Shown piece after piece: positions 1 through 64,000 of a DNA stretch of 64,000 nt. The position numbers were made by a program, and so were the translations under genes. The notes below the pieces were generated by a model that saw nothing but the letters and a program-made list of their open reading frames with translations, searched no databases and was not told the DNA's origin. How positions within the stretch are numbered: position 1 is the stretch's first letter; each line of letters begins with the position of its first letter. The DNA is from Spizellomyces punctatus DAOM BR117 (taxonomy: Eukaryota). The stretch lies in the NCBI GenBank assembly GCA_000182565.2, contig KQ257457.1. The stretch is one strand, 5' to 3'.

Positions 1-119
1 CTTCCCCTCTCAAATTCAGCTGAAAACCTTATTCAGTCATACCAAAAACTCTTGCGCAAACCAAGATCTGCTCAGGTAGCTACTCGGAAACCTTTTCTCT
101 TGTTTCAGAAACAGACTTC

Positions 120-7973: not shown

Positions 7974-7989
7974 CTCCCCCACTTTAAGA

Positions 7990-18954: not shown

Positions 18955-19384
18955 CTCCCACTCAGTGAATCATCTGATTTCCGACAGAGACCCATTTTAC
19001 CACAAAATCAGAATGATCACAGATGCGTGTGGGAATGATTTAAAGGGGTAAAATCATCATGTAAGCACTCTTAGAAGGTCTGGAAGGTTTGTGACGATCT
19101 AGATCTTCAGGTAATGTTTGCCAAGGCATGGCTGAAGCTGCTGAGCACTGCTGAGCACTGCTGAGCATGGCTGAAGCATGTAAACAGTAAACAAAGGCGG
19201 AGGGAGGCTGGAGAATGTACTGGGTTATATAAAGGGGACTTTTGCACGTCTCTGAATTAATACAACCGTGTTATCCCACAAGTTACTGCACCCAGAAGTC
19301 TTACTAGCGGCCACAGGCATTACTAGGTCTTCCAGAAGTGATTTCTACACGGGAAATCAGTGTTCCAAGCGCTAAGTTTCAATA

Positions 19385-19396
19385 GGTTATGAGCCC
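19385..19396 (+). promoter_or_regulatory. Copia primer-binding site of the half-tRNA-iMet type
   Basis: GGTTATGAGCCC directly after the LTR, similar to the GGTTATGGGCCC PBS of copia-type elements that prime from the 5' half of initiator tRNA-Met. Confidence 0.8.
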
Positions 19397-19563
19397 TGAT
19401 AGCTATCACTGATATTTTCCTGCTTCAAATCTCTTTTCTGACGGCCACACCATCTTCCTGACGGACCTATCTTCTTCCCAACCTCATATTTGGACCACCT
19501 ACCACACCAGGACGATTTCACCTCTTCTCCAACAGCACATCCACTCACCAAATCAGCTCAGAC

Positions 19564-47045: not shown

Positions 47046-49476
47046 TATTGAAACTTAGCGCTTGGAATACTGATTTCCCGTGTTGAAATCACTTCTGGAA
47101 GGCCTAGTAATGCCTGTGGCCGCTAGTAAGACTTCTGGGTGCAGTAACTTGTGGGATAACACGCTTGTATTAATCCAGAGACATGCAAAAGTCCCCTTTA
47201 TATAACCCAGTACATTCTCCAGCCTCCCTCCGCCTTTGTTTACTGTTTACATGCTTCAGCCCACTTGTTTACATGCTCAGCCGTGCTCAGCAATGCTCAG
47301 CAGCTTCAGCCATGCCTTGGCAAACATTACCTGAAGATCTAGATCACCACAAACCTTCCAGACCTTCTAAGAGCGCTTACATGATGATTTACCCCTTTAA
47401 ATCATTCCCACACGCGTCTGTGATCATTCTGATTACTCTATGTCCAATTCCCCACGTTGTAACTTAGCCAAATCAGATGTGAACTGTCTAATGACATCCC
47501 AGCATGATCTCACATGATTTATAGATCATACAGCGTGGTTTAAGCCTGAATCTCAACACTCCCACTCAGTGAATCATCTGATTTCCGACAGAGACCCATT
47601 TTGCCACAAAGTTTAAGGTGCTTTGTCTTGGGTAAAGCCTTGGTGAGAATGTCAGCTGTCATTTCTTCTGTCTGACAGTACTTGAGGCTGATGTTCTTGT
47701 CTTCTACTGCTTGTCTGATGAAGTGGTGCCGCACATCAATGTGTTTGGTCCTTGCATGATGTGTTGGGTTGTTGGCAAGTGCTATGGCGCCCTGATTGTC
47801 ACCATACAATGTTGTAGGACCACTTTGCTGATGTCCTAGTTCGCCTAGAAGTGTTCTGAACCAGATAACTTCCTTGGTAGCTTGACAAAGAGCCATGTAC
47901 TCTGACTCTGTTGATGATAGAGCGACTGTAGGTTGCCTCTTGCTTTGCCAGCTGACTGTGCTGCTGCCAATCTTGACTAAGAAGCCAGTGGTAGACTTCC
48001 TGAAGTCCAAATCACCGCCCCAATCTGCATCAGAGTATGCAGATAGCTCCCACTTGCTCTGAATGCCGCCCAGTTGAAGTCCTAGGTCTGTGGTGCCATT
48101 CAGGTACCGCATGATCCGTTTGACTGCATCCAGTGCTGATGTCCGGGGTTGGAAAGATACTGGCTAACTGATCCAACTGCTGCTGCTATGTCTGGTCTGG
48201 TGCCCAGCATTGCATAAATGAGACTTCCAACAGCACTTCTGAAAGGAACCCCATTCATTTCTTGCTGTTCTGCCTCAGTTTGTGGTGACATGGCCTTGGT
48301 GAGCTTCTGGCCATTCTCTAGTGGTGTGGCAACTGGTTTGCTGTTACTCATATTGAATTTCTTCAATGTTTGACCGAGGTACCGCTGTTGGGAGAGCCAG
48401 ATTGACCTGTTGGCTCTGTCCCTGACCACTTGAATGCCGAGAAAATGCTCTAACTGGCCCATATCAGCCATCTTGAACCGCTTCTTGAGTTCTTCTTTGA
48501 GTTTTAACAACTCCTGGTTGTCCTTTGCTGCCAGAATAAGGTCATCCACATACAGGATAAGGTGGATGCCCATCTTCTTGTTGATGTACAGCCCGTGGTC
48601 TGATTCACACCTTTCAAAGCCAAGTTCTTTGAGTTGCCCATCAATGACTTTGTTCCAGGCTCTTGGAGCTTGCTTTAACCCATACAAACTCTTCTTTAGC
48701 TTGCAGACAAGTCCATTTGCCATGGTGAAGCCTTCTGGTTGGTCCATGTAGATGTCCTCCTCAATGGTCCCATTCAAGAATGCTGTCTTGACATCCATTT
48801 GGTGAATCTCCATGTCCTTCATGGCTGCTAGTGTCAGGACCGTCCTGATGGTTGCAAACTTGACTACTGGGGCAAATGTCTCCTTGTACTCCAGTCCTTC
48901 AACTTGGGAGTATCCTTTGGCTACCAGTCTGGCCTTGTAGCGCTCTACAGAGCCATCTGACTTGAGTTTCAGCTTGAAAACCCACTTGCAGCCAACTGTG
49001 GATCTTCCTGGTGGTAGTTTGACTAAGTCCCATGTCTGATTCTCCATCAGAGAGTCATATTTTGCTTTGACAGCCACCTCCCACTGTTTGGCATCATATC
49101 TGGTCCTAGCTTCAGTCAGAGTGCTGGGTTCTTCCTGTGGAACTTCCCCAATGGTGAAGGCAAACGCCAGATTTGACTGAGTTGGCTTTGCAATCCACCA
49201 CTCTCCCAGTGGTTTGTGAAATCTGGCACTCTTCCTGCTGAGTTCTGGCACTTCCTCAGCATCCTGGAAGTCGTCCCGATCATCTTCTGATGCTGAAGAG
49301 TTGTCTGGAGTGATGCTAGATGGTCTCTGAGTCTCTTGAACCGTCCCTAGCCCTTCTTGGTCATCCAAGAACGAAGGCTCCCCTCCTAGAGGCATCTGTA
49401 GCTCTTGGTCTTGCTGTGGTACACTCTGCAGTCACTGCTGAGTGCTCCACATCAAGTTTTCATCAAAGATGACGTC
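47046..49476 (-). mobile_element. Ty1/Copia copy D (3' LTR 47046-47558, RNase H, RT), interrupted by the viral element
   Basis: Near-identical to copies A/B; Copia sequence stops at ...AAAGATGACGTC, where the other copies continue CCTTGACATG. Confidence 0.93.
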
Positions 49477-49521
49477 TGATACAGTGCAGATAAGCCGTAC
49501 GGCTTATCTGCACTGTATCAG
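49476..49521. repeat. Perfect 46-bp palindrome at the element terminus (44 bp TG...CA if the shared C at 49476 belongs to the target)
   Basis: CTGATACAGTGCAGATAAGCCGT|ACGGCTTATCTGCACTGTATCAG; 23-bp arms, no loop, no mismatch. Confidence 0.97.
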
Positions 49522-49632
49522 CCGGCTTATTTATGATTATAAGCTGGCTTATTATTCTATATACCCGGCTTATTATATATTACATCAGCCCGGCTTATTA
49601 TATTTAAACGCCCACTCCATATTTAAACGCCG
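49501..49632 (+). repeat. Subterminal iteron-like direct repeats
   Basis: GGCTTAT at 49501, 49524, 49546, 49567 and 49592 (spacing 21-25 bp), then two ATATTTAAACGCC copies. Confidence 0.85.
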
Positions 49633-49745
49633 TGTCAATTTAACTCAAACGTGGTTCTAACCACTCGGACCCCATCTCGAACACACCAATTTCGAATAGT
49701 TTTTTCCCTTCATACTTTGCCAGCATTTTTTCCATGATTGCCCCA

Positions 49746-50234
49746 TCATGTGCTTTCGAATCCTCCTTCAGTTACTGATACACACGACACCTTCAGTCTC
49801 AATACATTCCGTTGCATGCGATAGATGGCGGAAATCTGTGTCACCTGGTCTTCCGTGTATCCGGCATTCATTAGCTCCTTCTTGATATCGTTTGTAAGCG
49901 CCCCCAACTTCTCCTCTACTAGCGATGCCACATACATATTCGAGCCATCTTCACCAATGATTGACCGGATACCTAAGTCCACCATCTTCCTTTCAATCGC
50001 CTCCTTACTCCGTCGATTCCCTGTTACTATCTTTTGGTACTTCTCATTGTCAACCGTTAGTTGGTAGAATCTCTTAATGTCAAACAGCTCCTCTCCACTA
50101 GCTCTCCTTATCAATTTCTGAGCCGCAAGGCGACTCAGCGCGCTCGAAGGAGCACTGTCCATGGTTAATCGATGCCGTGTGAATCGCTCATAATCGTAAT
50201 TGTTTTGGTGGGCAGGGGAGGGACATTGAACCAT
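49746..50234 (-). CDS. Hypothetical viral protein (162 aa)
   Basis: Intronless ORF in the viral element; no recognised motif; contains an in-frame double-hairpin element. Confidence 0.55.
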   Translation of the reverse strand: MVQCPSPAHQNNYDYERFTRHRLTMDSAPSSALSRLAAQKLIRRASGEELFDIKRFYQLTVDNEKYQKIVTGNRRSKEAIERKMVDLGIRSIIGEDGSNMYVASLVEEKLGALTNDIKKELMNAGYTEDQVTQISAIYRMQRNVLRLKVSCVSVTEGGFEST

Positions 50235-50639
50235 CGACTTTATGCAAAAACTTGGACTTGCTATTGATAGTTGCTTTTCCCACTTTACATCAGCAGATTA
50301 CTACACGTACGACTCACGTGATGCACCTTCCTAATATGGTAATCAACTATCGATAGATTCACTTTGCAAAGCAATTCATGTGATTTGCCATGTCCCAGAC
50401 ATGTTAGTCCCCCGATCATGACTCAGCTTCAGTTAGCCAATCTTGATCGTAATTCTTTAAATACAGCTTTGGTTTCCGAGGTCGCCTACGGCGAAAGTAA
50501 AGGAACATTCAATGGCCACACTACGCGTCCTCGCTTGAGCCTGCGCTCAGCGCGCTCCGAAGGGAGCGCTGTCCTTCATAAGTGTGGAGTCAGACGGTGT
50601 AAATGAAAGTGAATGGTGACTCGATTCCGCATATACTAA

Positions 50640-51130
50640 AATTAGGGGGGCCTGTTTGGGGGGCCTGTTTTNNNNNNNNNNNNNNNNNNNNNNNNNNNNN
50701 NNNNNNNNNNNNNNNNNNNNNNNNNNNNNNNNNNNNNNNNNNNNNNNNNNNNNNNNNNNNNNNNNNNNNNNGCCTCTCCATATATGATTTAGCAGCTAAT
50801 CCCCGTCGAGTCAACTTATCGAGTGATAAAAAGGGGGGCCTGGGGGGCCTGTTTTTTGGACATTTGGGGTCTACAGAGATGTTCTACTAAAGTAAAAATA
50901 GGAATAATGTGTTTGTTGTTTTTTACTCTGCTTTTTTCATTCCAAACAATCTACTTTCGAAAAAACAGGCCCCCCAAGCCCCCCCTAAAAAACAATGAAT
51001 TATACTACATATATCTACTCCATATATTCTCTCTTTTTTCATAGCTCTCTTCATACATCGAGTAAAAAAAAACAGGCCCCCCACATGCCCCCCACATGCC
51101 CCCCACGCCCCCCTAAAAACAATCAATTAT
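50640..51130. repeat. Direct and inverted G6/C6-tract repeats (GGGGGGCCTGTTT / AAACAGGCCCCCC) downstream of the primase-helicase gene; spans an N-gap
   Basis: G-tract units at ~50644-50671 and ~50833-50857; complementary C-tract units at ~50960-50990 and ~51064-51120. Confidence 0.8.
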
Positions 51131-51145
51131 ATAGTCCCTCTCTTT

Positions 51146-53956
51146 TCACTCACGCAATCGGATTCCTATGTAAAAGCGAGTTCCCTTGATTTTCTTTTCC
51201 TTCAGAACTGAACTAAGTTCCTTGTGAAATTGATTTGCACTAAGTGGTTCTTTGGTGCTCCCGAAGAATTGTATGTAGTAATGTTTGTACAATTCCTTTT
51301 TTTCAACTCGATTGTTCTTCATATCCGTTTGGTAATCTACCAGCATGTACGTCTTCTCCAGCCATTTTGCGGCGCTTAGACTGTTCATCAGGTTCCTCTG
51401 TGTAAATTCCATCACAGCAGGAGGGGTTTCTATTTCGAACGCCGATGGTATCCCAAAGAAAGTGGTATAATATTCGAAAAGCATTAAGATGAATTCGTCC
51501 CTGTAGGCGGGTGAGGAGAACAACCGCTTAAGTGACCTATCTATGATTTTTCTCGAAGTTGGGCTGTCCTCCGTTTCGTCATCCGCGACTTCATCTCCTT
51601 CATCTTCATCTCCTTCCTCCTTATTATCTTCATCAGCATCATCGAAGCAGAATGGATATTCCTGCACCCGAGCGTGCATTGCAAGGGCACGCTCCACTTT
51701 GTCAAACTTGATGTCCTCGTTCGTTTGAACATTAAGGAGACCAGTGATGGGAAATGATATGGGTTTTCCATGCAATGACCGGACCGTTTGTCGGTCATCA
51801 CCGGACGACCAGCGTTTAATGATTTCTGCTATAAAATAGTCACCAGGACTAGTCTCGGAAGTGGATAAGTACCTCTTGCCAAAACAGTTGTACAACTGAG
51901 CGTTGGGAGCATCAACGGTTGCACTTTCCATCGTTAAATTCTTCTTGTCAACCGCATAATAGTATCCCCCAAATGCCTGGTCAATCAAAGTATTTTCTGT
52001 ACCTTTTCCATTGCGACCTCCCCCCTTCAACACCATGAAGATTTCGTCCACAATTTTACCATAGAGGCAGCGACACACTATGTGGAAGCGATAGTTTACC
52101 AGGTCACGAGAGGGAAAGATGCTTTCATAGAAAGAGAGAATATGTTCGCGTATCTCTGGGTTGGTTTTTCTCGGATATGGATAACCACAGGTGAAAAGGA
52201 TGTAATCATCGGGTCGAATATCTCGAAACGTACCTGTGTTCAGTTCATATACGCCATCTGTGAAGGCAAATAGTTCTGGTTTGGAAAGGAAGAGGTCGAT
52301 GCATTTATCGTTTCTCGGTTGCAAACGGTCAACATTTTTGGCCACTTGCACTGAAAAGTTGTTCATTTCAATATCGCGACGGAATGATGCCAAGAGGTCT
52401 TGGAGCAATGAAACATTGGTCTCTTGACCATCATCATCGGCATCCTGGATGAGTCTCTGAAAGTCGGCAATAAGGGTATCGGCGACTTGAAGATTAACAT
52501 CGCTATCTGCAATGTTTTCTTGCTTATACCAGATATTGTCTTTTCCAAGGATAAAGCAGATTCCGCTGGAATGCTTGAAGATAGTGTCTTTCTTGATCTC
52601 CACAAACCATTCAGCGGTGTTCTTGTGGGTGGGAACCAACACTCGCCGAAAATCAAACCTTTTCCATTGCGGAAGGCGACGCAACTCATCAATATCCAAT
52701 TCTTCCCTGGCGTCTCTCTTTCTCTTCTTCGGCTGTTCGGCAATAGGTTCTTCATTCACTTCAGGCGGAACAGTTAGATGGAATTGGTCGAGGAAACTCT
52801 GAGAAAATTCCATGGGCTTCTCGGACAATCGGATGGAGTAACCGGTTTCTGCCAAGATATATTGTTCGCATTCATGCAAGAGGTTGACGTCAAACAATCT
52901 ATCAGTTCCAGGCTTGCGTCTGACCTGAATTCCATCATAAATCAACACATCCACAGAATATTGGATATCGGTGAAAAACTCGTGCATCGACCACATGATA
53001 CAATTTTCGACGGTGTGGTAAACGAGGCTAAGGAACGACCCAGCACGATTCTGCTTCTTACGTGAAGTCCTCAGCCAAATATCAGGAAACTGTTTTTGGA
53101 GAAGCGGCACCAGTTTTTGGTATACGAAGGAGTGAATGGCAGCGACTTGCTTGTTGAAATTGGTGGCCTTTTTTTCACAGTTAACAATTGCTATCATGTC
53201 TTGTTTGTTCATCTTCCATTCACTCAATAATGTGTCACGATTTTCAACGTAATCATCCAAGTGGGGGCAGAATAGGTTATTTGATTTGCTTAGTTCCCTT
53301 AATACAGTGAATTGAGCATTAACCATATCAAGATCATGGTACTCGTGTCCGCAAAGGTAAGCACGGAAAGGGAAGGTACGAGCAGGGGTCCCTTGAAGTG
53401 AACTAGGGTTTACCTTTTCACCGTCGTCATTGTTCAAATGGAAGCAACGACATTGTGCATATAAACGTCCGATGCGTAAATCACGGTTATTCTCTGAAAA
53501 GTTATACTCCACATGGTAGTCGTTGGGGCCAACCCGTCGTTTTTTGAATGAGCGGAAAAATCTTTTGTATTCTTCAGATACGTAGGGAGAGTTCAAGATT
53601 TCCCTCAATCTAGCATCCGACACGAATTCAAACTTTTCGATGGGCAGTTGCATTTGTGCAGATTGAGTGACCGTGGGTATATCACTGTTATCAACAGGAA
53701 AGAGCAGAGGGTCGTGACCAACTTCGTTATTATCCTCGATGTTCTCGTTCGTTTGCTTTTCGGTTTTAATTTTCTTTTTATCAGGTAAGGATGGTGGCGC
53801 CTTGGTTTCAACTCCCTTCTTGTGCTTCTGGGGAGTGAATGTACCATCGGCGTCAACAACAAAAATTTCTTCTTTCGCATCTTCAACAATTAACAAAGGT
53901 ATATTTTTGCGAATCGCAATGACTTTAGGCGCTTTCTTGCTGGATTGAGTTTGCAT
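51146..53956 (-). CDS. TVpol (PolA-family-like primase/polymerase) fused to D5_N and a superfamily 3 helicase (936 aa)
   Basis: IGRLYA..SSLQG..RAYL..YHDLDMVNAQ (motif A), HTVEN, VLIYDG (motif C); D5_N LFAFTDGVYEL..FRDIRPDDY; Walker A GGGRNGKGT, Walker B LSTSE, IIKRWSSGD, motif C LNVQTN. Confidence 0.88.
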   Translation of the reverse strand: MQTQSSKKAPKVIAIRKNIPLLIVEDAKEEIFVVDADGTFTPQKHKKGVETKAPPSLPDKKKIKTEKQTNENIEDNNEVGHDPLLFPVDNSDIPTVTQSAQMQLPIEKFEFVSDARLREILNSPYVSEEYKRFFRSFKKRRVGPNDYHVEYNFSENNRDLRIGRLYAQCRCFHLNNDDGEKVNPSSLQGTPARTFPFRAYLCGHEYHDLDMVNAQFTVLRELSKSNNLFCPHLDDYVENRDTLLSEWKMNKQDMIAIVNCEKKATNFNKQVAAIHSFVYQKLVPLLQKQFPDIWLRTSRKKQNRAGSFLSLVYHTVENCIMWSMHEFFTDIQYSVDVLIYDGIQVRRKPGTDRLFDVNLLHECEQYILAETGYSIRLSEKPMEFSQSFLDQFHLTVPPEVNEEPIAEQPKKRKRDAREELDIDELRRLPQWKRFDFRRVLVPTHKNTAEWFVEIKKDTIFKHSSGICFILGKDNIWYKQENIADSDVNLQVADTLIADFQRLIQDADDDGQETNVSLLQDLLASFRRDIEMNNFSVQVAKNVDRLQPRNDKCIDLFLSKPELFAFTDGVYELNTGTFRDIRPDDYILFTCGYPYPRKTNPEIREHILSFYESIFPSRDLVNYRFHIVCRCLYGKIVDEIFMVLKGGGRNGKGTENTLIDQAFGGYYYAVDKKNLTMESATVDAPNAQLYNCFGKRYLSTSETSPGDYFIAEIIKRWSSGDDRQTVRSLHGKPISFPITGLLNVQTNEDIKFDKVERALAMHARVQEYPFCFDDADEDNKEEGDEDEGDEVADDETEDSPTSRKIIDRSLKRLFSSPAYRDEFILMLFEYYTTFFGIPSAFEIETPPAVMEFTQRNLMNSLSAAKWLEKTYMLVDYQTDMKNNRVEKKELYKHYYIQFFGSTKEPLSANQFHKELSSVLKEKKIKGTRFYIGIRLRE

Positions 53957-54004
53957 ATTGGTTATTTTACTTCCGGGTTTTTTTGTGAACTAACCATTTC
54001 GTAC

Positions 54005-54018
54005 CAATCTTTATATAA
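54005..54018 (-). promoter_or_regulatory. Shared TATA-like promoter motif TTATATAAAGATTG upstream of the primase-helicase gene
   Basis: The identical 14-mer lies at 55898-55911 upstream of the RING gene, at nearly the same distance from the ATG (49 vs 46 nt). Confidence 0.6.
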
Positions 54019-54123
54019 GCATTTGAATGCACATCGGAGCTATTTAGGCAACATCGGTCGCCGATGTAAAATGCGTTTATTTAAACAAGCACGATTTTGG
54101 TACATCAATAATATACAACGAAA

Positions 54124-54327
54124 ATGCCACACTCAAAATTTGATTACACTGGGATATTCGAAAAGTACGGGATTACCCAGACATTCCACGCTCCATCATT
54201 GCGGCAGTTGTCAAAGATGATGGATATCTCAGAGATGACTATGAGAAAGGCCGCAAAAATGAATGGAGAACTGTATCCCCGTGCAATCATACCTTTGAGA
54301 GTCTCGAAGGTTCCAAAGCAGAACTAA
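54124..54327 (+). CDS. Small viral protein, possibly HTH DNA-binding (67 aa)
   Basis: SLRQLSKMMDISEMTMRKAA resembles a helix-turn-helix; AAAATG start context. Confidence 0.5.
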   Translation: MPHSKFDYTGIFEKYGITQTFHAPSLRQLSKMMDISEMTMRKAAKMNGELYPRAIIPLRVSKVPKQN

Positions 54328-54485
54328 GTTCGATCATCCTTATAATCCTCAATCAAACTCTCCCTCATCCGCTTACTCCGCTCTTCAAGGTAGCATTGGA
54401 GACAAAGAGGTCTCCGTTGACAAGGAACCTTATCATACTCTCTGCCACATTTTTTACATTGACGTTTTGCTATGCTAGTTTCCAT
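54324..54485 (-). CDS. Small CxxC...CxxC zinc-ribbon protein (53 aa; below the ORF-track cutoff)
   Basis: METSIAKRQCKKCGREYDKVPCQRRPLCLQCYLEERSKRMRESLIEDYKDDRT*. Confidence 0.55.
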   Translation of the reverse strand: METSIAKRQCKKCGREYDKVPCQRRPLCLQCYLEERSKRMRESLIEDYKDDRT

Positions 54486-54563
54486 TTTTTAGACTTGATC
54501 TGAAAGTGTTTAAGTATGAACGAACTCACTCTAAATTTTTTTGAACCACTGTGTTAACATATC

Positions 54564-54735
54564 AATGGATTTAACAACTCCCGAAACGAAAGTCGAAACA
54601 CTGAAAAAAAGGCTACGTTGGCTGAATGATTTATGGAAGGAGGCAAGGACAACTGAGAAACGCCTCGCCATTCACCAAGAAATCGAGCGAGTTAAGTTCG
54701 AATTAAAGGAACTTGGGTATATGAGATACTTTTAA
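54564..54735 (+). CDS. Small coiled-coil viral protein
   Basis: MDLTTPETKVETLKKRLRWL..EIERVKFELKELGY; amphipathic helical pattern. Confidence 0.45.
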
Positions 54736-54789
54736 ATGGCTCAACGCAATATATGCCGCATTTTTTTTTTATTTTTATAAGGAATAGCC

Positions 54790-55032
54790 ATGTTCTGTAG
54801 TACATCCGGATTGACCAATGTTCTTGTGACACTTTTTGTTGTAGTCGCCATAACTTGTTATGGCTTGACAGAATTGATTAATTGGACAGATGGTTATAAA
54901 CAACGCCTGGTCTATCAGGAAAGATACCAACAGAAAGAAAACCTGCGCGATGCATTGGAAATCTTGGAAGACGAATTTGAATGTTATTGCAAGAACAGAA
55001 ATCCCACATCAGATGACGCGCTAGCCGTGTGA
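54790..55032 (+). CDS. Small single-pass membrane protein (80 aa)
   Basis: N-terminal hydrophobic stretch VLVTLFVVVAITCYGL; its stop codon is the first TGA of a double-hairpin element. Confidence 0.5.
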   Translation: MFCSTSGLTNVLVTLFVVVAITCYGLTELINWTDGYKQRLVYQERYQQKENLRDALEILEDEFECYCKNRNPTSDDALAV

Positions 55033-55396
55033 GCCGCCGCAAGGCGGCGACTCAGCGCGCTCGAAGGAGCGCTGTGAGCGCTGTAAACGAGATTATGATC
55101 AGTAAACATGTCCGGAACATGATAAATCACGTGCATTCTCCTCGGCACGAGACTAAACTGCCTGGCGAGTAACAAGACCGACCGACGAATATCATAGTTA
55201 TTGTTTTTAAATCTGGTTGATTCAGACTGTTCTTTAGGCTTTCTCAGACAGCGCTGAGCCGCCGCAAAGGCGGCGACTCACCCAAAAGAAAGCACAGGTC
55301 ATGGTACTGACCGAACAATAAGAAAGTACCACCACAGCTCCTTCGAGCACATCGAGCTGCGCCGCAAGGCTTCACAGCTTTTAAAATTGATATAAA

Positions 55397-55852
55397 TCAC
55401 AGATACATCAAAGTAAAGTTTGTCAAAGGATGTCTACACATAGGACATCTACGACTATTTTCTTGGTTTGAGTTGTAGTAATCGACGAAACAACGTGCAC
55501 ACATATGATGTCCACACTCAAAGATGATGGGAATGTTATTCGCATCATTGTAGCTTTCGTAGCATATCAAACATTTCAACTCTGCCCCTGCAAATGTCCT
55601 GTTTTCTTCCCGAAGCCTTTGAGCAAGTTCTTCAACCCGTACTCTCAGATCCGGTTCATGCAAATGCAGCTCTTCCATAGGAGGTCTGTTTTCATCTAGA
55701 GCCCAGCGCATAGCACTATATAGTCCCCTGATGGTCATTCCACGAGTTCGTGCGATCAGGCGACAGGAAGTGAGATAGTTCCACTTCTCATCGTCATTCA
55801 GTCTGTTGAAGTGGGCTCTGCCCATGTGATATATCTGCTGAGCAGTAGGCAT
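55397..55852 (-). CDS. RING-finger (C3HC4-type) putative E3 ubiquitin ligase
   Basis: CLIC..ECGHHMCARC..RCPMCR. Confidence 0.88.
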   Translation of the reverse strand: MPTAQQIYHMGRAHFNRLNDDEKWNYLTSCRLIARTRGMTIRGLYSAMRWALDENRPPMEELHLHEPDLRVRVEELAQRLREENRTFAGAELKCLICYESYNDANNIPIIFECGHHMCARCFVDYYNSNQENSRRCPMCRHPLTNFTLMYL

Positions 55853-55950
55853 CGAGATTTTAGAAAAAGAGAGATTTTATTAGACATTTACTTCTGTCAA
55901 TCTTTATATAAACCTGAGTAAGTGCGAATCTATCTATAGCTTCGCCTTTG

Positions 55951-56042
55951 AGCTACGCATACAACATGAAACTACGGATACAACATGAAACTACGGATAC
56001 AACATGAAGCTACGCATACAACATGAAACTACAGATACAACA
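55951..56042 (+). repeat. 19-bp tandem repeat (~4.7 copies) between the divergent RING and recombinase genes
   Basis: Unit CTACG(C/G)ATACAACATGAA(A/G) starting at 55953, 55972, 55991, 56010 and 56029. Confidence 0.92.
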
Positions 56043-56129
56043 GACAGACTATCAATAAAGATGAAATAAATTTCTTATATTAAGTGATAAACCGGCTTAT
56101 ATCCTTTAGAATACAAATCAGCCCTGAAA

Positions 56130-57110
56130 ATGGAACAACACAATACCGAATCTGCTCTCTATGATACTCTATGTAACATCCTTAACAGGATCAACCAGTC
56201 TGCAAAAACCACGAAAAATGACAAGTCGCGCCTAAACCAACTCAAAAGCCATAATCTTCTTTCATTATTCGAAACGCCTCAGATACTTATTTCGACGATT
56301 AAGGAAAAATGGCCGAATGACAATACGAAGAGCAACTATATCAAACTCGTATCGAAACTATGTCGTAATGCTAAAAAGGGGGAAAAGGCAATGATCCTTC
56401 ATCTAGCAGAGGATGCAATGGACGACCTTGATGGTCATTTTACGGACACATTCCACTCTCACTTCAAGAATGTGACATATGAAAAAGTCAAACAATTCAA
56501 AACTCAGGCTGCATCCCAAGAGATGACCCAGGAAGATTTCGCAAATTATGTCCCTTACAGCGAACTCTTAGCAGGATTGAAAGTGGCTCTCACATTCATT
56601 AATGAACAAAATATAGTGGAGCATCAATTTCTAATCGCGCTTGGGATGAACCTGGACGCTGATAAGATTCGTTGTAATGATATTTTCAAAGCGATGATCA
56701 GCGAAGACGCTAATGTTACGGTGAACAATGAAGGGAAAACTGTCTTCATCCGAAAATGCAATAAGACTGGTGAAAAGAATGTCCTTATTCAGATGGGAGA
56801 CACCATTCAACCATACGTTAACATGTTAGCAAATGTTAGAAAGGCCAATGAGCAAACGCGTCTGTTCCTGAAACCTGATGGAAGTATCCCCACCGATGCC
56901 TGGTGTAGTGACGAATTTGCTAACGCTATGGAACGAATCTTTAAAAAGCGTGTAACTCAGAGACGAGTTCGAATTTCAATGGGCATTTATCTTTCTGAAA
57001 AAGACAATGGAGACCATGCGTACCAAAAATCAATCGAGCACAGAATGGGTCACACATACGAAGTCCATCAACGCTATTACAATTTGTTCAAATCATTTAA
57101 TGCAAATTAA
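56130..57110 (+). CDS. Tyrosine recombinase of the PLV/virophage (OLV11-like) type
   Basis: Catalytic order R (KIRCND), K (CNKT), RxxR (QRRVR), H (RMGH), Y (HQRYY); helical N-terminal core-binding region (NTKSNYI). Confidence 0.75.
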   Translation: MEQHNTESALYDTLCNILNRINQSAKTTKNDKSRLNQLKSHNLLSLFETPQILISTIKEKWPNDNTKSNYIKLVSKLCRNAKKGEKAMILHLAEDAMDDLDGHFTDTFHSHFKNVTYEKVKQFKTQAASQEMTQEDFANYVPYSELLAGLKVALTFINEQNIVEHQFLIALGMNLDADKIRCNDIFKAMISEDANVTVNNEGKTVFIRKCNKTGEKNVLIQMGDTIQPYVNMLANVRKANEQTRLFLKPDGSIPTDAWCSDEFANAMERIFKKRVTQRRVRISMGIYLSEKDNGDHAYQKSIEHRMGHTYEVHQRYYNLFKSFNAN

Positions 57111-58426
57111 TGACTGTTCTCAAAATCATTCACACTGTCCCTCGCCCCACGCATAAGTTCACTTCTTGGCTCCCATGTAGCCTGGTCACGGTCATATCCT
57201 CTCCATAAGACGAGGTATTCAACTACTTGTCTTGAACCGACTCGACGTGTCCGCTTATCAAGCAATGCTTCCACTTCATACTCACCTTCTGGTACTTCCT
57301 CTTCATCCCCTTCAATTTCAGGCTCAACTTGTGGAGTTTGTCCATCATCCTCTTTTGGAACCAAACGCAATTGCCAAGCGGGATACACTCCTGGCAGCGG
57401 ATGATCAGAATTGACAGCACTCCTTCGAGCGTGCTGAGTCGCCGCAAGGCGGCTCACAGGCTTAATTTTATAACTGCCCATGTAATTGGGGTGGGGATTT
57501 GGAACAACGGCTGTTATTTCATACTTCTCTTCTGAAAAGTAACCGAGCTTGGCCCGGCGTTTTATATCTGTCCCCTGTCCTGATATATACTTTCTTACAA
57601 CATCGCCCACACTGAATGGAGGTAATACTTTCACCCCTCTTCCTTTCGTGCGCAGCGCACGTTGGGCTTGAGCCGCTCCTTGGATGTCTGCCTCCATCTG
57701 TTGCACAGTACGGAGTTTCTTCCCAGAACCGAAACTTACGGTAGAATTTATGTTCTCCACAATCTGCGGTAACATGGTCACCCAATCTCTGTTTCCCAAG
57801 CGCATCCCCATGAACAACGCTCGCTTTATGGTGCCATTCATCCTTTCGACCTGTCCATTTGTTTGAGGTGAGCCGGCCTTCGAATACCTCCATTCTATGC
57901 CATGTGTTTCTGCATACTGTGAAGTGATACCTTGAAACTCGTTTCCATTGTCGCTTTGAATACCATGGATTTCGACACCATCCTCAATGAGGTTTTGTAA
58001 AAAGTTAACGACACTTTGTTGCCGTGTATCTTTCAAGGCTTTAGCGTAAACGCGTTTAGTTAAAATATCAACCGCAACTGCTACATATTTATAGCCATTG
58101 TATGGGACGCTAATCATTGAAAAAAGATCGAGTTGAAGTTGTCCTGGGCTACTTGATAATATAGGACGGATGCCACCCTTGTTTGTCAATGGTCGAGACC
58201 AGCGTTGCCAGATCGGTTGCTCTTTCAACCATGCTAATAGTGTCCGTTGGGAGATATTGCTCTCAGGATACTTTGCTTTGTAGAGTGCCCAGAGCCTGTC
58301 TCGGCCCATGTACGCATGCTCTCTATAGTAGAGCTGCCTTAAACGCCGCTCATCCTCTGGTGTGATCTCTTTCCAGTAGTTCTTCCTTTGATCCATCTTA
58401 TCAATAAGAATCAGCTTTAAAAACAT
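57107..58426 (-). CDS. Retroviral-type (rve, DDE) integrase with C-terminal chromodomain, Polinton-like; true start possibly the second Met (MDQRK)
   Basis: LQLDL (D), IQSDNGNEF (D), NGQVERMNGTIK (E); SH3-like FSVGDVVR; chromodomain EYEVEALLDKR..EYLVLWRGY..ATWEP; no adjacent RT or gag. Confidence 0.92.
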   Translation of the reverse strand: MFLKLILIDKMDQRKNYWKEITPEDERRLRQLYYREHAYMGRDRLWALYKAKYPESNISQRTLLAWLKEQPIWQRWSRPLTNKGGIRPILSSSPGQLQLDLFSMISVPYNGYKYVAVAVDILTKRVYAKALKDTRQQSVVNFLQNLIEDGVEIHGIQSDNGNEFQGITSQYAETHGIEWRYSKAGSPQTNGQVERMNGTIKRALFMGMRLGNRDWVTMLPQIVENINSTVSFGSGKKLRTVQQMEADIQGAAQAQRALRTKGRGVKVLPPFSVGDVVRKYISGQGTDIKRRAKLGYFSEEKYEITAVVPNPHPNYMGSYKIKPVSRLAATQHARRSAVNSDHPLPGVYPAWQLRLVPKEDDGQTPQVEPEIEGDEEEVPEGEYEVEALLDKRTRRVGSRQVVEYLVLWRGYDRDQATWEPRSELMRGARDSVNDFENSH

Positions 58427-58494
58427 GTATCACCGGGGCAAAACCCATTAACATGTCTCGGACATGTTAACGTCGAAATCGGTGCGCGGGCCGA

Positions 58495-58812
58495 TCAAGC
58501 GGTTTCTTTCCGCATCTCCAAAATGAACAGTTTTTCATTATGTTCATGCCCTAGTAATATGCAATCATTCAAAATTGCCAGATAACCGGTACGGTTGAAG
58601 CATAAATGATCCAATTTGCTCAGGTGGACAATTGACATGATTTTATCAAAAATCGGTTGGTTCTCTTGATTTTTTTTAAGATACAGTATGATTTTTGCCT
58701 TATCACTACCGGTCAACATGCTCTCGCAATATCTCCAAAACTTATCCATGTCGCCTTTGACGGCATCCCTGATATTGAATACCGAATGATAATCTATATC
58801 AACACGTTGCAT
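58495..58812 (-). CDS. Hypothetical viral protein (105 aa)
   Basis: Intronless ORF between the fibre-like and integrase genes, same strand. Confidence 0.5.
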   Translation of the reverse strand: MQRVDIDYHSVFNIRDAVKGDMDKFWRYCESMLTGSDKAKIILYLKKNQENQPIFDKIMSIVHLSKLDHLCFNRTGYLAILNDCILLGHEHNEKLFILEMRKETA

Positions 58813-58883
58813 TGTAAATTTACATAGCTTTACTTTTTTTAATAACAGCGCACTGTTGAACTCCGTTCCAGTGCTAAAGGTTT

Positions 58884-61800
58884 TTAAGGGCCGAGTTCAG
58901 TGATTTTGATGAGGGTAACGTCTGTGGTATTATCGGGAGCAGCCTGATTGATACTAAAATTTGTGAAGTAAGCAACGTTATCGGCCATCCCTGTAACAAT
59001 GAATGCGGCAGTGATTGTACGATTGACCCCCGAATTAAAGTTAAAGTCGCTCGAGTACACGAGAGGCATCGACCCAGCGCTTTGGCCGAGAAATATTGAC
59101 AAAGTACCATTTGAATTTGCTGTGCCATGGAGGTTGAGCGTCCACTCCATAAGTACCTTGCCAGGTGTTGAAACATAGAAGACCTTTGAGGCATTGTTGG
59201 ATTGCCACATGTCTTTAGTCAAAAGTTTGATAACTTGAACATTTCTTAGAAATGTTTGACTGGCAACCCATGGTTGAGTAGCACAAACCTGACCATTGCT
59301 ATAGACAGCACCGTTCGAATACAGATTCCCTCCTGCAACAACATGTGCATTAACCGCAACTCCTCCATTGACAACCAGAGCACCAGTTGTACTCGATAAA
59401 GCTGGAGTGGTGCTTTCAACGACAACATTTCCTGTCGACAATGTGATAGTAATACCCTTTGCTCCCTGTGCTTGCAGTCGCACTGAACCTGCATCATTCC
59501 TCACCATAAACATCGAGGCGCCTCCGTCCACACTCCTATTGTTTCCGTTCAAAAACATAACAGCAGAACCTGCTGCATTCTGGAAGTATTGGATGGCACA
59601 ACTATTGCTACCAGAGTCGACGTTTTTAAGAATAATAGCCCGTAGCCCATTAAGTGGCGAACCAATAGTTAGATTACTGGATGAGATGAGGTCTCCGGTG
59701 TAGGTGTTAACTGAGAATCGGCTATTCCATGTTCCAAAGGTATCACTGGAATAATGACCGAATTCATAATGACGTTGGTCTATGCTATCAGACGAGCTGG
59801 TGAGGTGGATGTGAAGGGCATCTCCGGAGTTGTTGTAGGAGATAGTGTAGTCACCTTTCGTAGAGGGAGTGTCACTTCTCAACTTGAAATATCCACCTGT
59901 AGAGGCGGCTATGAGAACTTTTCCTGTAATGTTTCCACCTGAGAAGATACTTTTAGAAACCCCTATTCCTCCTTTAACCTGTAGAGCACCACTTGATATG
60001 GTTGTTGCCTCGGATGTATCATTAGCAAGAATTGTATTTGCCGACAGATTACTAGAAGATGTTATAACATCTTGTTTCGATGTTTGCAGTGCTGATATGC
60101 TGGGGGCATAGTCGACAATGTTTAAAATACTTCGAATGGAAATATCATTCACAAGGGTAAATCCTTGGACATCATCTCCCATGACAAACATGTTCGACAT
60201 TGGACTCATCGATGCAAGGGAATCGAGTAAAGGACTTGCATTTTGCTTCCCTGAGATGTCGACATTGGTAATGCCTAATATTGTCTTCACCTCTTCAGGA
60301 GTTTTCACCGAGAATGATGTAGCAGAACTCCCAACAATAAATGAATTCGCTGATAATGCAAGACCACTTATAGACGATAATAGTGGACTCGATGCCTGTT
60401 TATTAGCAATGGCCATCCCTACATAACTCTCGGTTGCAAGTTTGAGATTATTGGAGAAAATGTCTCCACCGATGTACAGCATTTTAGCGACACCTAAACC
60501 TCCTGATACCTGCAATGCGCCCGTTATAGTCGACGATGAGTCTGTAGTCGAAGTGATTGCAATGGTTCCATTGGCTTTGAGGATGAATTGATGGGCGCTA
60601 GTTCCATAGTTATAAAACCCGAGGCTCCCATTGGTAAGTATACCTGTTCCATTAGTTGCAGCGTGGTATATACCCCAAGAATTACTCGAAGCAGCATTGT
60701 TACTAATCAGAACGGCCGTAGACGCTGTGGCACTTGAAGGCGCATTGATGACTATGGCAGCCGGCTGCAATCCTCCTCCACCTGCTCCTAGGGTTAGAGT
60801 TTTTCCTATGCCGACTCCACCTGATACCTGGAAAGCACCTGTTGTCATACTAGTTGAATCGGTTGTGTTTGGTATCTGTGTTACGCCTGTATTGGAAACT
60901 CTCAGAACGAAGCCTGTATTGTTATAAGAACTATTTAGACCGAATCCGCCTGCTGATAATGTTCCGTCTCCTGTGCTTCCGGCAACTCTCATGCCCCATG
61001 TAACATTACTCCCAGTATTTACTAAGGACAATGTTGTAGATGCTGTGCCATTTTGAATGGTTATACCCCCGCCAACAGTGGCACTGTTAAATGATAGCGC
61101 AGTCGATGAGGTAATAAGAGGTTGATATGAGGAAAGTATATTCGATGTAGGAACAACTGAGAACCCTGTGGGTGTTCCCATGATGAAAGTGTTAGCCGCC
61201 GGCGTTAAACCGCTGATAGAATCGAGTAACGCAGACGCACTTTGTTTAGTAGCAAGTGCTGTATCTGCGGAGGCCTTGTTATTCTGAACAAGTGTTTGAA
61301 GCGAAGTCAAGGATTGACTAAGAGGACTTGTCATGCCGGTCATTGTAGCGACACTCCATTGTTGCGTAGCCACTTCGACTCCATTTTGAATGATCAGTCC
61401 TTCAACATTTAGATCATGTTCAACAAGTAAGCCACCTGTCAAGAGTCCATTGCCTACATTATCTACTCGAAACACTATATCTGAGGTGCCTTGGACAAAT
61501 ATTCCACCACTCGTTGTTAGAGAATTAACATTCAATGCAGACGATGTAGTAAGAAGAGGTTGGAATCCCCCTAGAATTGTAGAGACAGGTGATACTGTAA
61601 AGCCCCCAGCAGTTCCCATGACGAAGGAATTCGGTGTCGTTGTTAAACCACTGATTGCATCGAGTAAAGGACTGGCATTTTGCTTCGTAGCAATGGATGT
61701 TGTTAGAGAACTTTCAGTAGCCAATTTCACTCCATTTGTGTATACATCCCCTCCAACGTACAGTGATTTAGCGATGCCAACTCCACCTTTCACCTGGAAC

Positions 61801-63992
61801 GAGCCGGATGTTGAGGAAGTAGCATCAGTTGTCGTATTGATAATAACATTCCCAGATGAGAGAATATCCAGATTCGAAGCCGTTGCATTATTTGTACCAA
61901 TACGCAAATTACTAGCGGAGGCTCGAATGATGTAGTCTCCAGCAACTGAATTTGTTACCCATTGACCTGCTGTTGCTGTATATCCGAATGATGCATTGTT
62001 TATTTGAAAGGCGGCAGCCGCTGTAGTAGATATAATAGCATATTTTCCCATGTACACTGTGCCTTGGACTCCTAATCCACCGGCAACCTGTAATGCACCT
62101 GTCGTTGTAGAGGATGCATCATTTGTTGCATCCAGTGTAACGATTCCAGTGTTCGCGAGTATTGTCAGTCCTCTAGCGGTCTGTGCTTGAAGCCGAAGGT
62201 TACCAATATCGTTTCTCAACGTCATTGTGTTAACGCCTCCATCCACACTCCTATTGTTTCCGTTCAAAAACATCACTCCATTACCTCCAGAGGCCGTTAG
62301 ATAAAGAATTGAACAAGCATTCGTCCCTGTATTAGTATTGGTTACAACTAGTGACCGTAGACCGCTAACAGAATTGGCTCCTCCGACGGTTAGGTCACCG
62401 CCAACAAGGCATGAACCATTAGTGTCCACTCTTAGACCTAGAGTAGGCGTGCTAGATGTTCTTGGATAGATAAACATTGGTGAATCCTGAGCACCCAGCC
62501 ATGTAGAGGCGGATGGGTTAAAACCAAGAAACCCTGCCCCATCAACCCCAAGCCATGTTGATTTTGAGCCGTCAAAATTACTTGAAATAAACACCGATGA
62601 TTGTCCTGTTGCAGAGGCTGTAGTTTGCAGACGTGTGCCTGTTATCACTTTGCCTGAAACATTACCTCCAAAAGTAATATTATTCGAAGTTAATGCCGTT
62701 ATCTGGCTTCCAACCCAAGGTTTGATGACTTCGGTATCATAATCCCTTAACATCGAGAGGTTGATCGCGGCTTGGGGGTATTCATATTTGATGGTGCGAT
62801 AGCAACTCGGTACATCAAATAGTAATCGAGTACAGCCTCCAATCGGGTCTGAAGCAATTGCCACATTGCTTCCAGGCTCTAAAGGCGGCATGAAGGTAAC
62901 AGGGTCGACTGGTTCGTAAACTGGATTTCCATCTCCATCGAGTATAGGTTGGCCTTCCGCATCTCGTTGAACCTTACGTTCCCTCTGACCACCGAAAATC
63001 ATTCCCCAAGGAAACGTTGAGACGATTGGGAGGATGGAGTTTACAGCCATGGGAATCGTCAGTGGTGGAGATACCATCGCAGGAAATGGAATAGTAGTCA
63101 GCGGTGTGGCCCCACTAAGAACAACAACATTCCCACCAGGGACATCAGTTTTTAAGATTTCTGCGGCGTCAGACTGTTCCGTATTATCGGTATCCCTTTG
63201 TTTCGATAACGGCGTAGGGTCAATGAGAGTGAAATTGTACAAAGGATAACTGCCGGATATGAGGAGATTTGGGCTGTTACTTACGAATTGTGGAGGAATC
63301 ATGTTGTACTGAATGGTATTACCAACAACGACCACACTTCCGTATGAATTGGTCGAGCCAACATAATTACCTCTTAAGGTATCGCCTACTCGAAGAATCG
63401 TATCACTTCCTGAAAGCGAACATGAAATCAGATCGCCACTAACTTGCACACCATTGATACCTCGGAGGTTGGTTGACAGAATGGCACCATTCTTCTGGAG
63501 TCCAATTCCCGCAGCGATGTTCGAACTGAGAACACCGTTGTTGAGAGTTAAATCGGGCTGTTGGGCTGTGAGAGATAACCTGAAATCATTTTGCACCCTT
63601 TGGATACCATTGGAGGCGGTAAACGTATCGCCTATGGTCCCGCGGCTGAGCATCATTAAGCCAGAGTTGGCATCAACTTTTAGATCGAGTTGAAGGTCAT
63701 TCTGTACTCTCTCGATACCATTGCTACAAGTCAGTACGTCTTTAATGGTATCTGCTTTGACCATTTGGAGACAACTGCCAGCCTCGCATTTGAGAGAGAG
63801 CACCACATCATTGGTCGTTCCCGGTCTAATGGAGACGCCATTAAAGTCCTGAAAAATGTAGCCACCTGTTAACTGGTTTCCTACAATCCGAACTGTTTGG
63901 TTATCAACGAGCACCCCGATTTCACGTCGTCCACTAAACTCTGGTCCGACAGCAATGGCCCCGGTTTGGCTGCCTTGGTAAAAATTGGCCAT
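58884..63992 (-). CDS. Large virion fibre/spike-like protein (1702 aa) with shaft-type and GALQVxGGxGV repeats
   Basis: N-terminal ~15-aa beta-spiral-like repeats (ASNGIQRVQNDFRL, AGIGLQKNGAILS, GINGVQVSGDLIS); six TDxxSxTTG(A/S)(L/F)QVxGG(V/L/I)G-type modules; repeated KQ(N/S/A)xSxLL modules; rich in S/T/G/N. Confidence 0.65.
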   Translation of the reverse strand: MANFYQGSQTGAIAVGPEFSGRREIGVLVDNQTVRIVGNQLTGGYIFQDFNGVSIRPGTTNDVVLSLKCEAGSCLQMVKADTIKDVLTCSNGIERVQNDLQLDLKVDANSGLMMLSRGTIGDTFTASNGIQRVQNDFRLSLTAQQPDLTLNNGVLSSNIAAGIGLQKNGAILSTNLRGINGVQVSGDLISCSLSGSDTILRVGDTLRGNYVGSTNSYGSVVVVGNTIQYNMIPPQFVSNSPNLLISGSYPLYNFTLIDPTPLSKQRDTDNTEQSDAAEILKTDVPGGNVVVLSGATPLTTIPFPAMVSPPLTIPMAVNSILPIVSTFPWGMIFGGQRERKVQRDAEGQPILDGDGNPVYEPVDPVTFMPPLEPGSNVAIASDPIGGCTRLLFDVPSCYRTIKYEYPQAAINLSMLRDYDTEVIKPWVGSQITALTSNNITFGGNVSGKVITGTRLQTTASATGQSSVFISSNFDGSKSTWLGVDGAGFLGFNPSASTWLGAQDSPMFIYPRTSSTPTLGLRVDTNGSCLVGGDLTVGGANSVSGLRSLVVTNTNTGTNACSILYLTASGGNGVMFLNGNNRSVDGGVNTMTLRNDIGNLRLQAQTARGLTILANTGIVTLDATNDASSTTTGALQVAGGLGVQGTVYMGKYAIISTTAAAAFQINNASFGYTATAGQWVTNSVAGDYIIRASASNLRIGTNNATASNLDILSSGNVIINTTTDATSSTSGSFQVKGGVGIAKSLYVGGDVYTNGVKLATESSLTTSIATKQNASPLLDAISGLTTTPNSFVMGTAGGFTVSPVSTILGGFQPLLTTSSALNVNSLTTSGGIFVQGTSDIVFRVDNVGNGLLTGGLLVEHDLNVEGLIIQNGVEVATQQWSVATMTGMTSPLSQSLTSLQTLVQNNKASADTALATKQSASALLDSISGLTPAANTFIMGTPTGFSVVPTSNILSSYQPLITSSTALSFNSATVGGGITIQNGTASTTLSLVNTGSNVTWGMRVAGSTGDGTLSAGGFGLNSSYNNTGFVLRVSNTGVTQIPNTTDSTSMTTGAFQVSGGVGIGKTLTLGAGGGGLQPAAIVINAPSSATASTAVLISNNAASSNSWGIYHAATNGTGILTNGSLGFYNYGTSAHQFILKANGTIAITSTTDSSSTITGALQVSGGLGVAKMLYIGGDIFSNNLKLATESYVGMAIANKQASSPLLSSISGLALSANSFIVGSSATSFSVKTPEEVKTILGITNVDISGKQNASPLLDSLASMSPMSNMFVMGDDVQGFTLVNDISIRSILNIVDYAPSISALQTSKQDVITSSSNLSANTILANDTSEATTISSGALQVKGGIGVSKSIFSGGNITGKVLIAASTGGYFKLRSDTPSTKGDYTISYNNSGDALHIHLTSSSDSIDQRHYEFGHYSSDTFGTWNSRFSVNTYTGDLISSSNLTIGSPLNGLRAIILKNVDSGSNSCAIQYFQNAAGSAVMFLNGNNRSVDGGASMFMVRNDAGSVRLQAQGAKGITITLSTGNVVVESTTPALSSTTGALVVNGGVAVNAHVVAGGNLYSNGAVYSNGQVCATQPWVASQTFLRNVQVIKLLTKDMWQSNNASKVFYVSTPGKVLMEWTLNLHGTANSNGTLSIFLGQSAGSMPLVYSSDFNFNSGVNRTITAAFIVTGMADNVAYFTNFSINQAAPDNTTDVTLIKITELGP

Positions 63993-64000
63993 GTAATCTT

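Follow-up and report, generated by a model that had tools for sequence, protein, structure and literature searches.

A probable, recently integrated Polinton-like virus interrupting a Copia retrotransposon in the chytrid fungus Spizellomyces punctatus

We analysed 64,000 nt of contig KQ257457.1 of the chytrid fungus Spizellomyces punctatus DAOM BR117 (this whole stretch is called the window), in which an integrated element is visible at 49477-64000; its right part lies past the window edge. The visible part probably makes up roughly the left two thirds of a Polinton-like virus (PLV) genome that is intact, was integrated recently and belongs to a family inhabiting Spizellomycetales chytrids. 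The element interrupts a Copia retrotransposon at an exactly placed junction and encodes a polymerase-helicase replicase, a tyrosine recombinase, an rve integrase and a long fibre-like protein (Table 1). The same gene order was found in L035, a 20,008-base metagenome contig that was the sole return of a metagenome scan with the recombinase profile and that was examined over positions 1-16830. Open reading frames (ORFs) were called under the standard code over 49.4-64 kb. Catalytic or signature residues are intact in the enzymes, the RING protein and the fibre, and ORFs of 936 and more than 1700 codons cannot have arisen by chance in DNA of 42% G+C.

The parent contig is 1.43 Mb long. The first 49 kb of the window form a transposon island rich in long terminal repeat (LTR) retrotransposons; it contains Gypsy fragments and several copies of Copia. 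When the left flank was compared with the window by BLASTN, three other Copia copies were returned (99.6%, 98.6% and 95.9% identity), and homology stopped at 49476 in all three. Side-by-side alignment placed the break exactly between 49476 and 49477, inside the Copia body. The cut Copia and the copy at 13768-16194 share 99.6% identity over 2428 nt, so the insertion of the element is recent and younger than a very recent Copia insertion. G+C changes from 0.47-0.49 in the flank to 0.42-0.43 within the element, and the named homologues of the element proteins are all from Spizellomycetales. A preliminary description of this DNA, made from the sequence alone, had placed the start of the element at 49477 and proposed a recent integration into a fungal genome. 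Its start coordinate is exact, the recent date agrees with the near identity of the interrupted Copia to its sister, and the integrated state is supported by the length of the contig, its LTR retrotransposons and the Spizellomycetales homologues. As a separate observation, the window holds a nest of very young Copia elements at 8851-24063. They share 95.9-99.6% identity with the cut copy, and a gag-pol ORF of 1334 aa runs uninterrupted through 19564-23568; Copia seems to be active now, or to have been active recently, in the S. punctatus genome.

The element begins with a perfect palindrome. As single-stranded DNA it folds at -25.7 kcal/mol (z = -10.5), and none of 200 shuffles was as good. 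The subterminal iterons, located by pattern search, have a spacing of 21-25 nt and are candidate binding sites of the integrase or of a replication initiator.

The replicase was identified by fold search and by matches to Pfam and PHROGs. A D5_N domain (Pfam, 1.4e-8) lies between the polymerase and helicase parts, and the protein also matched the African swine fever virus primase-helicase C962R (2.8e-5) and DNA-primase families of PHROGs (down to 9.2e-30, phrog_1156). The N-terminal 300 residues had no Pfam family. An AlphaFold2 model of the TVpol region had a pLDDT of 91.4 and a pTM of 0.89. When this model was searched against the PDB, only family A DNA polymerases were found among the matches listed to rank 50, including apicoplast Pol, M. 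smegmatis Pol1, Klenow, Taq, T7 and Pol nu (best E 5e-4; three matches at E <=0.001; TMq 0.40-0.50). The window protein was aligned with 32 relatives, namely five database proteins, L035 and 26 contigs of IMG/VR. D208, D210, N213, R240, K251, E317, D341 and K380 (full-protein numbering) were invariant in these 33 sequences, and the Walker A residues G645, G650 and K651 were invariant in six sequences. The polymerase fold, the invariant residues and the helicase matches together uphold the reading of this protein as a TVpol fused to a superfamily 3 helicase (TVpol-S3H). No PolB was found among the 7 element ORFs (Pfam) or the 10 ORFs of L035. In its replicase, TVpol-D5_N-S3H, the element thus departs from Polintons/Mavericks in the strict sense, although it does carry the rve integrase expected of them.

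The TVpol domain was found in 34 IMG/VR contigs of 6.5-30 kb, with 22-35% identity over the polymerase domain. In three of these contigs there was a relative of the L035 ATPase, and in one a penton-like ORF. An IMG/VR scan with the single replicase sequence found no relatives. In tblastn of 11 window proteins against the 34 TVpol loci, only the replicase matched.

The recombinase had no relevant match in sequence searches of Pfam, PHROGs or the PDB. A model built by AlphaFold2 from five sequences had a pLDDT of 69.3, and among its fold matches listed to rank 50 only tyrosine recombinases were found (Tn1549 Int, Cre, XerA, XerH and lambda Int), with E from 1.7e-3, none at <=0.001, and TM 0.31-0.41. 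A profile search of 1.84 billion protein representatives returned 58 relatives. Across 34 family members K212 and R281 were invariant and R182, H308 and Y317 were at least 90% conserved; the histidine of the H-x-x-R motif was not conserved. Two of these 34 members matched Phage_integrase in Pfam (best 2.3e-5) and one matched Phage_int_SAM_5. The 34-sequence profile matched only designed helical repeat proteins among PDB sequences. No relatives were found in IMG/VR by profile scan or among the ORFs of the 34 TVpol contigs, and the protein is 34% identical to a protein of Powellomyces hirtus. Judged by the modelled fold and the conserved residues, the protein is a tyrosine recombinase of a small divergent lineage. 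The IMG/VR results lend no support to the 'OLV11-type' label of the preliminary description.

The integrase gene overlaps the recombinase gene by 4 nt at its 3' end. Its D100, D159, E194 triad (DD35E) is conserved with L035. The integrase is only 23-25% identical to the Gypsy integrases of the window and therefore is not a retrotransposon fragment; it is 33% identical to the L035 integrase over 439 aa, full-length and in conserved synteny, and on these grounds a local Gypsy fragment was rejected as its source. An IMG/VR scan with the integrase pair found no relatives. The insertion of the element in a transposon island would fit chromodomain-guided integration.

The fibre gene runs off the end of the window. 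Its product is 92% identical to SPPG_01935 (2035 aa), and the alignment begins at residue 333 of that protein, so about 330 fibre codons lie past the window. The fibre search returned seven proteins, six from S. punctatus DAOM BR117 (36-92% identity, four contigs) and one from Spizellomyces sp. 'palustris'. The S. punctatus paralogues are 1279-2139 aa long, and some align over only 18-49% of the query. The adenovirus-fibre N-terminal motif PF06536 was found above the cut-off (residues 100-134, 2e-5) in three of the five paralogues scanned (P0020, P0022 and P0023). The window fibre contains six copies of the motif G-[AS]-[LF]-[QV]-V-x-G-G. Despite these repeats and a 53-nt DNA repeat, self-BLASTP gave no off-diagonal match at 1e-5. 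In the ESM Atlas the nearest clusters of the fibre and of its last 153 residues were viral, some with C1q (scores 0.89-0.90, 135-153 shared features), which serves as a lead only.

Two further observations concern the fibre sequence. Its centre is nearly identical to SPPG_01935, and its N-terminal third is more diverged; together with read depth and variants, described below, this uneven divergence suggests gene conversion or recombination between copies of the element. The C-terminal ends of the fibres differ, that of L035 carrying a Peptidase_S74 domain and that of the window having no Pfam match (58884-59400); from the sequences, relatives seem to have swapped the receptor-binding tips of their fibres.

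L035 matches the window in gene order and orientation: replicase (-), small conserved ORF (+), recombinase (+), integrase (-), small ORF (-) and fibre (-). The recombinase and integrase genes overlap at their 3' ends in both. Identities are 25% over 763 aa for the replicase (1.8e-38), 34% for the recombinase (1e-51) and 33% for the integrase (5e-65). The L035 fibre (8541-13262, 1573 aa) is weakly similar to the window fibre (4.6e-6); it has the C-terminal Peptidase_S74 at 1.8e-10 and matched PF06536 below the cut-off (5.5e-4). Beyond the fibre, L035 encodes a 489-aa low-complexity ORF, a Pox_A32 ATPase (15449-16141, 3.8e-11) and a penton-like ORF (16180-16830). The last of these matched DUF5901 at 2e-5, with 24.1 bits against a cut-off of 26.4, and its only PDB match was P1v1 of 8h2i, which was not significant (E 0.079). 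P1 of 8h2i we take to be the chlorovirus penton protein. About 3.2 kb of L035 lie beyond 16830, which is room for the rest of the penton gene and a capsid gene.

From the synteny with L035, the missing right part of the window element should hold morphogenesis genes. By the same comparison the full element should be about 22 kb long, and the missing part, about 8 kb, should contain the first ~330 fibre codons, genes for a packaging ATPase, penton and major capsid protein, and the right end of the element. A 22,002-bp contig, close to the expected length, carries the fibre homologue found in Spizellomyces sp. 'palustris'.

The preliminary description had listed a PolA-like polymerase-helicase, a RING protein, a tyrosine recombinase, an rve-chromodomain integrase and a fibre-like protein, and had noted that no capsid or packaging ATPase is visible. 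All five ORFs and their identities hold. The replicase is confirmed by its family A fold matches, D5_N, C962R and PHROG matches and Walker A residues, the RING protein and the integrase by the Pfam matches given in Table 1, and the recombinase by fold matches and catalytic residues, with no direct Pfam match. The fibre assignment is supported through the paralogues with PF06536. Three details required correction: the DNA contains a gap of 100 N, the fibre ORF is incomplete and cut by the window end, and 49477-51145 holds a single ORF (162 aa) and repeats, nothing further. Pfam searches and the ORF calls agree that the visible stretch has no capsid or packaging ATPase gene. The Polinton-like virus reading itself gained indirect support from the ATPase and penton-like gene of L035 and from PF06536 in the fibre paralogues, while the virion genes of the window copy lie out of view.

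Two independent chromatin immunoprecipitation sequencing (ChIP-seq) DNA runs of 2026, both labelled as the same species, and one RNA run supplied reads that were placed on the window. Coverage and expression had both been proposed as checks in the preliminary description. ChIP-seq DNA reads were present in 30 of 30 bins of the element. In twelve reads of run X17 only 10 letters separate 50671 from 50772; the 100-N gap is thus a placeholder, and almost nothing is missing. X17 depth (two columns summed) was about 14-30 over 50.97-58.9 kb, 62-88 over 58.9-62.3 kb and 30-40 over 49.8-51.0 kb; the fibre segment (58908-62309) had 4-5 times the depth of the replicase region, with many variants of intermediate frequency. 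Depth and variant frequencies together indicate that other copies also carry the fibre segment and the left terminal region; the left terminal depth could alternatively come from a long terminal inverted repeat. A reading of ChIP-seq depth as copy number was rejected, as enrichment is not known and there is no single-copy host flank for reference.

The left end showed two other features. Contigs of run X1 contained an alternative joint from 49638 to 50238, which skips 599 nt with the 162-aa ORF, and a loose end before 49617; the left end is probably arranged differently in other copies of the element. Repeated G-run/C-run motifs, present in both orientations, stand on either side of the assembly gap (50620-51115); they may be the inner boundary of a terminal repeat or the cause of the assembly break.

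Several observations weigh against an intact virus at this locus. No capsid, penton or ATPase gene is present in 49477-64000, where the window stops inside the fibre gene, and no major capsid gene was found in L035 1-16830 (of 20,008 bases). L035 is only 25-34% identical to the window element, and its penton call is below the Pfam threshold. The recombinase, the integrase and the L035 ATPase had no relatives in IMG/VR scans, so a free-virus form of the lineage is not documented. No read or contig among those listed was shown to bridge the Copia/element junction, where reads of other Copia copies dominate. The RNA run placed 64 of 26.4 million reads, mostly on the Copia LTR, with a depth inside the element of <=0.28. 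The preliminary description had called the virus possibly inducible; the element was nearly silent and gave no sign of activity in that one RNA sample.

Part of this evidence would suit a mobile element without a capsid, or a provirus whose morphogenesis module has been lost or broken and which makes no virions. The fibre is the sole virion gene visible in 14.5 kb, the element is nearly silent in the RNA run, and the range of lengths and partial alignments of the six S. punctatus fibre paralogues suggests decaying copies. Without a virion, however, it is difficult to account for an intact fibre ORF of more than 1700 codons with 92% identity to a paralogue, and L035 carries an ATPase and a penton-like gene beyond its fibre. 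A major capsid gene has also been reported in the S. punctatus PLV (PMC7805220, in the sections drawn on here). We consider a capsid-less element unlikely. The same RNA silence could be that of a mavirus-type virophage which depends on a giant virus of zoosporic fungi and stays silent until infection. Such giant viruses exist (PMC13533422, as far as drawn on here), and the combination of recombinase, rve-chromodomain integrase and long primase/helicase is that of the mid-GC endogenous mavirus-like elements (EMALEs) described in the cited parts of PMC8547959. Against a virophage, no cysteine protease was found in the window or in L035 1-16830, the L035 penton-like protein matches DUF5901 and P1v1 of 8h2i, neither of which is a virophage protein, and IMG/VR, where virophages are abundant, held no relative; the TATA-like motifs upstream of the replicase, RING and recombinase genes would fit host transcription, which is weak evidence. 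A virophage in this sense appears quite improbable.

An assembly chimera, or contaminant DNA fused with the fungal scaffold through a repeat, would account for a flank made of high-copy Copia, for a 100-N gap 1.2 kb inside the element and for a junction that no listed read bridges. The Copia body itself is broken, precisely at the TG terminus and palindrome; the independent ChIP-seq runs of the same species label fill every bin and bridge the gap; and fibre paralogues (59-92% identity) stand on other large scaffolds of Spizellomyces genomes. These three facts speak against a joining artefact, which we regard as scarcely credible. An endogenous giant-virus fragment was rejected on size and on the 20-kb syntenic contig. 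A largely intact, recently integrated PLV whose right part lies past the window remains the reading that we prefer.

Table 1. Features of the element and its left flank (positions in the window; E-values as returned; a dot marks features without strand).
Feature	Position	Strand	Basis or remark
3' part of Copia LTR retrotransposon (integration target)	47046-49476	-	RVT_2 ORF 48100-49395, Pfam RVT_2 1.9e-79
Left terminus, TG start, 44-nt perfect palindrome (22+22)	49477-49520	.	Sequence equals its own reverse complement
Subterminal iterons	49490-49598	.	GGCTTAT, five direct at 49501, 49524, 49546, 49567, 49592; one inverted at 49490
ORF, 162 aa, function not assigned	49746-50234	-	No Pfam or PHROG match; contains one copy of the 40-nt hairpin motif
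40-nt double-hairpin motif, three copies	50122-50162, 55036-55075, 57414-57453	.	Repeat search and folds
Assembly gap, 100 N	50672-50771	.	Real gap about 10 nt
Replicase, 936 aa: TVpol (about residues 95-400), D5_N, superfamily 3 helicase	51146-53956	-	Fold search, Pfam, PHROG
Conserved small ORF, 67 aa	54124-54327	+	Divergent from replicase gene; L035 counterpart
Small ORF with CxxC...CxxC	54324-54485	-	ORF list
Small ORF	54565-54735	+	ORF list
Small ORF with hydrophobic N-terminus	54790-55032	+	ORF list
RING-finger protein, 151 aa	55397-55852	-	Pfam zf-RING_2 9.7e-9 and other RING models
Tandem array of 19-nt units	55934-56047	.	Repeat search; divergent RING/recombinase intergenic region
Divergent tyrosine recombinase, 326 aa	56130-57110	+	Fold search and conserved residues
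rve integrase, 439 aa, C-terminal chromodomain	57107-58426	-	rve 8.9e-12, Chromo 7e-13
ORF, 105 aa, function not assigned	58495-58812	-	No family match (Pfam, PHROGs)
Fibre gene, at least 1704 codons, 5' end past window	58884-64000	-	Paralogue alignment; no stop before window end

The remaining genes are small. Four ORFs of 53-80 aa together fill 54.1-55.0 kb. The 67-aa ORF is 44% identical over 39 aa (2.3e-8) to an L035 ORF in the same relative position, and its product, judged by eye, is possibly a helix-turn-helix protein; homologues of the other three were not found in L035. At the L035 position equivalent to the 105-aa ORF there is a 94-aa ORF without detectable similarity. The RING protein is a putative E3 ubiquitin ligase. 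A tRNA gene search found none in the element.

A TATA-like motif, TTATATAAAGATTG, was observed ~55 nt upstream of the replicase and RING start codons (about 54010 and about 55905), and the recombinase gene is likewise preceded by a similar TATA-like stretch. These motifs are a weak hint of host-type nuclear transcription.

Two kinds of internal repeat were found besides the iterons. The 19-nt array may be a recombinase site, a promoter or an origin. The 40-nt motif has a degenerate fourth copy near 50540-50575, and one copy carries a compensatory change in its second stem. The copy within the integrase gene is an in-frame insertion of 14 codons relative to the L035 integrase. The motif may be a small mobile or regulatory hairpin repeat.

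For the PLV reading, the following course of events can be proposed. The rve integrase would join the linear genome to host DNA via TG...CA ends, with the chromodomain steering insertion to transposon-rich chromatin. The TVpol-helicase would prime and unwind the genome, perhaps from the terminal palindrome and iterons. The tyrosine recombinase might act on circular or concatemeric forms, either in their resolution or as a second integration route. Transcription would be carried out by the host nuclear machinery, as the TATA-like motifs suggest, and the fibre would sit on the capsid vertices and bind the host. A bolder picture, which we hold to be doubtful though worth stating, is that Spizellomyces harbours a multi-copy, still-active PLV family with virions bearing adenovirus-like fibres, whose chromodomain integrase hides it in transposon islands, whose private lineage of tyrosine recombinases serves circular forms, whose terminal hairpin and iterons start TVpol replication, and which is perhaps woken by stress or by a giant virus.

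If such an active family exists, a genetically transformable fungus would for the first time offer an experimentally tractable double-stranded DNA (dsDNA) virus system. Fungi have few DNA viruses, and it is in chytrids that they now turn up. Genetic tools exist for Spizellomyces, so induction, excision and particle formation can be tested directly. The present copy is unusually clean, with an exact junction, intact enzymes and an insertion made after that of a Copia still 99.6% identical to its sister. It offers handles on replication and integration in the palindrome with iterons, the convergent recombinase-integrase pair and the small private recombinase family.

Elements of this kind have been described before, and the comparisons below refer to the sections of each source drawn on here. 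Bellas & Sommaruga 2021 (PMC7805220) reported a single integrated PLV from S. punctatus, whose capsid gene was new, and defined an 'S. punctatus group'. That PLV and the window element share host genus, integration in a large contig and PLV type, and the closest homologues of the window element are S. punctatus proteins of 83-92% identity. The published PLV may be the present locus or a paralogue of it. That study records no E3 ligase for its S. punctatus group, whereas the window element has a RING protein. One element is reported there, whereas at least six fibre paralogues and the 4-5 times higher fibre depth point here to a multi-copy family. A 2026 preprint (10.64898/2026.06.19.733378) reports that the genomes of many chytrids contain A32 ATPases.

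Starrett et al. 2021 (PMC8502044) assembled six midsize eukaryotic linear dsDNA (MELD) viruses of Powellomyces, which have fibres like those of adenoviruses and differ in their replicases; PolA, S3H and tyrosine recombinase (YRec) are listed in the legend of Figure 6 there, on MELD viruses of several hosts. Powellomyces belongs to the same fungal order, and its viruses have vertex fibres and non-PolB replicases, as in the window element. Their genomes are free contigs assembled from reads, whereas the window element is integrated, and the two are likened by description.

As for the replicase, TVpol-S3H and OLV11-like recombinases were defined in PLVs by Yutin et al. 2015 (PMC4642659). PgVV-group PLVs and Sputnik-like virophages treated there have the same order of domains, with a family-A-like polymerase domain fused to S3H; the window replicase differs from that TVpol-S3H in having D5_N between polymerase and helicase.

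Hackl et al. 2021 (PMC8547959) described mid-GC EMALEs of Cafeteria burkhardae with a tyrosine recombinase, an rve integrase and a long primase/helicase. Like the window element, these have both a tyrosine recombinase and an rve-chromodomain integrase, have a long primase/helicase ORF in place of protein-primed PolB (pPolB), and are integrated, multi-copy and entangled with retrotransposons. The hosts are unrelated, and EMALEs have a cysteine protease and a virophage-type capsid, neither of which was seen in the window or in L035 1-16830, though both might lie in the right part of the element, past the window. In Cafeteria the retrotransposons lie inside the virus, whereas in S. punctatus the virus lies inside the retrotransposon. 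The novelty suggested in the preliminary description was thus overstated, since a S. punctatus PLV (PMC7805220), Powellomyces fibre viruses (PMC8502044) and two-enzyme elements (PMC8547959) are already published. With PLVs in S. punctatus, two-enzyme integration modules and TVpol-helicase replicases all on record, the known picture is unchanged, and the element adds a well-preserved new example to a known kind.

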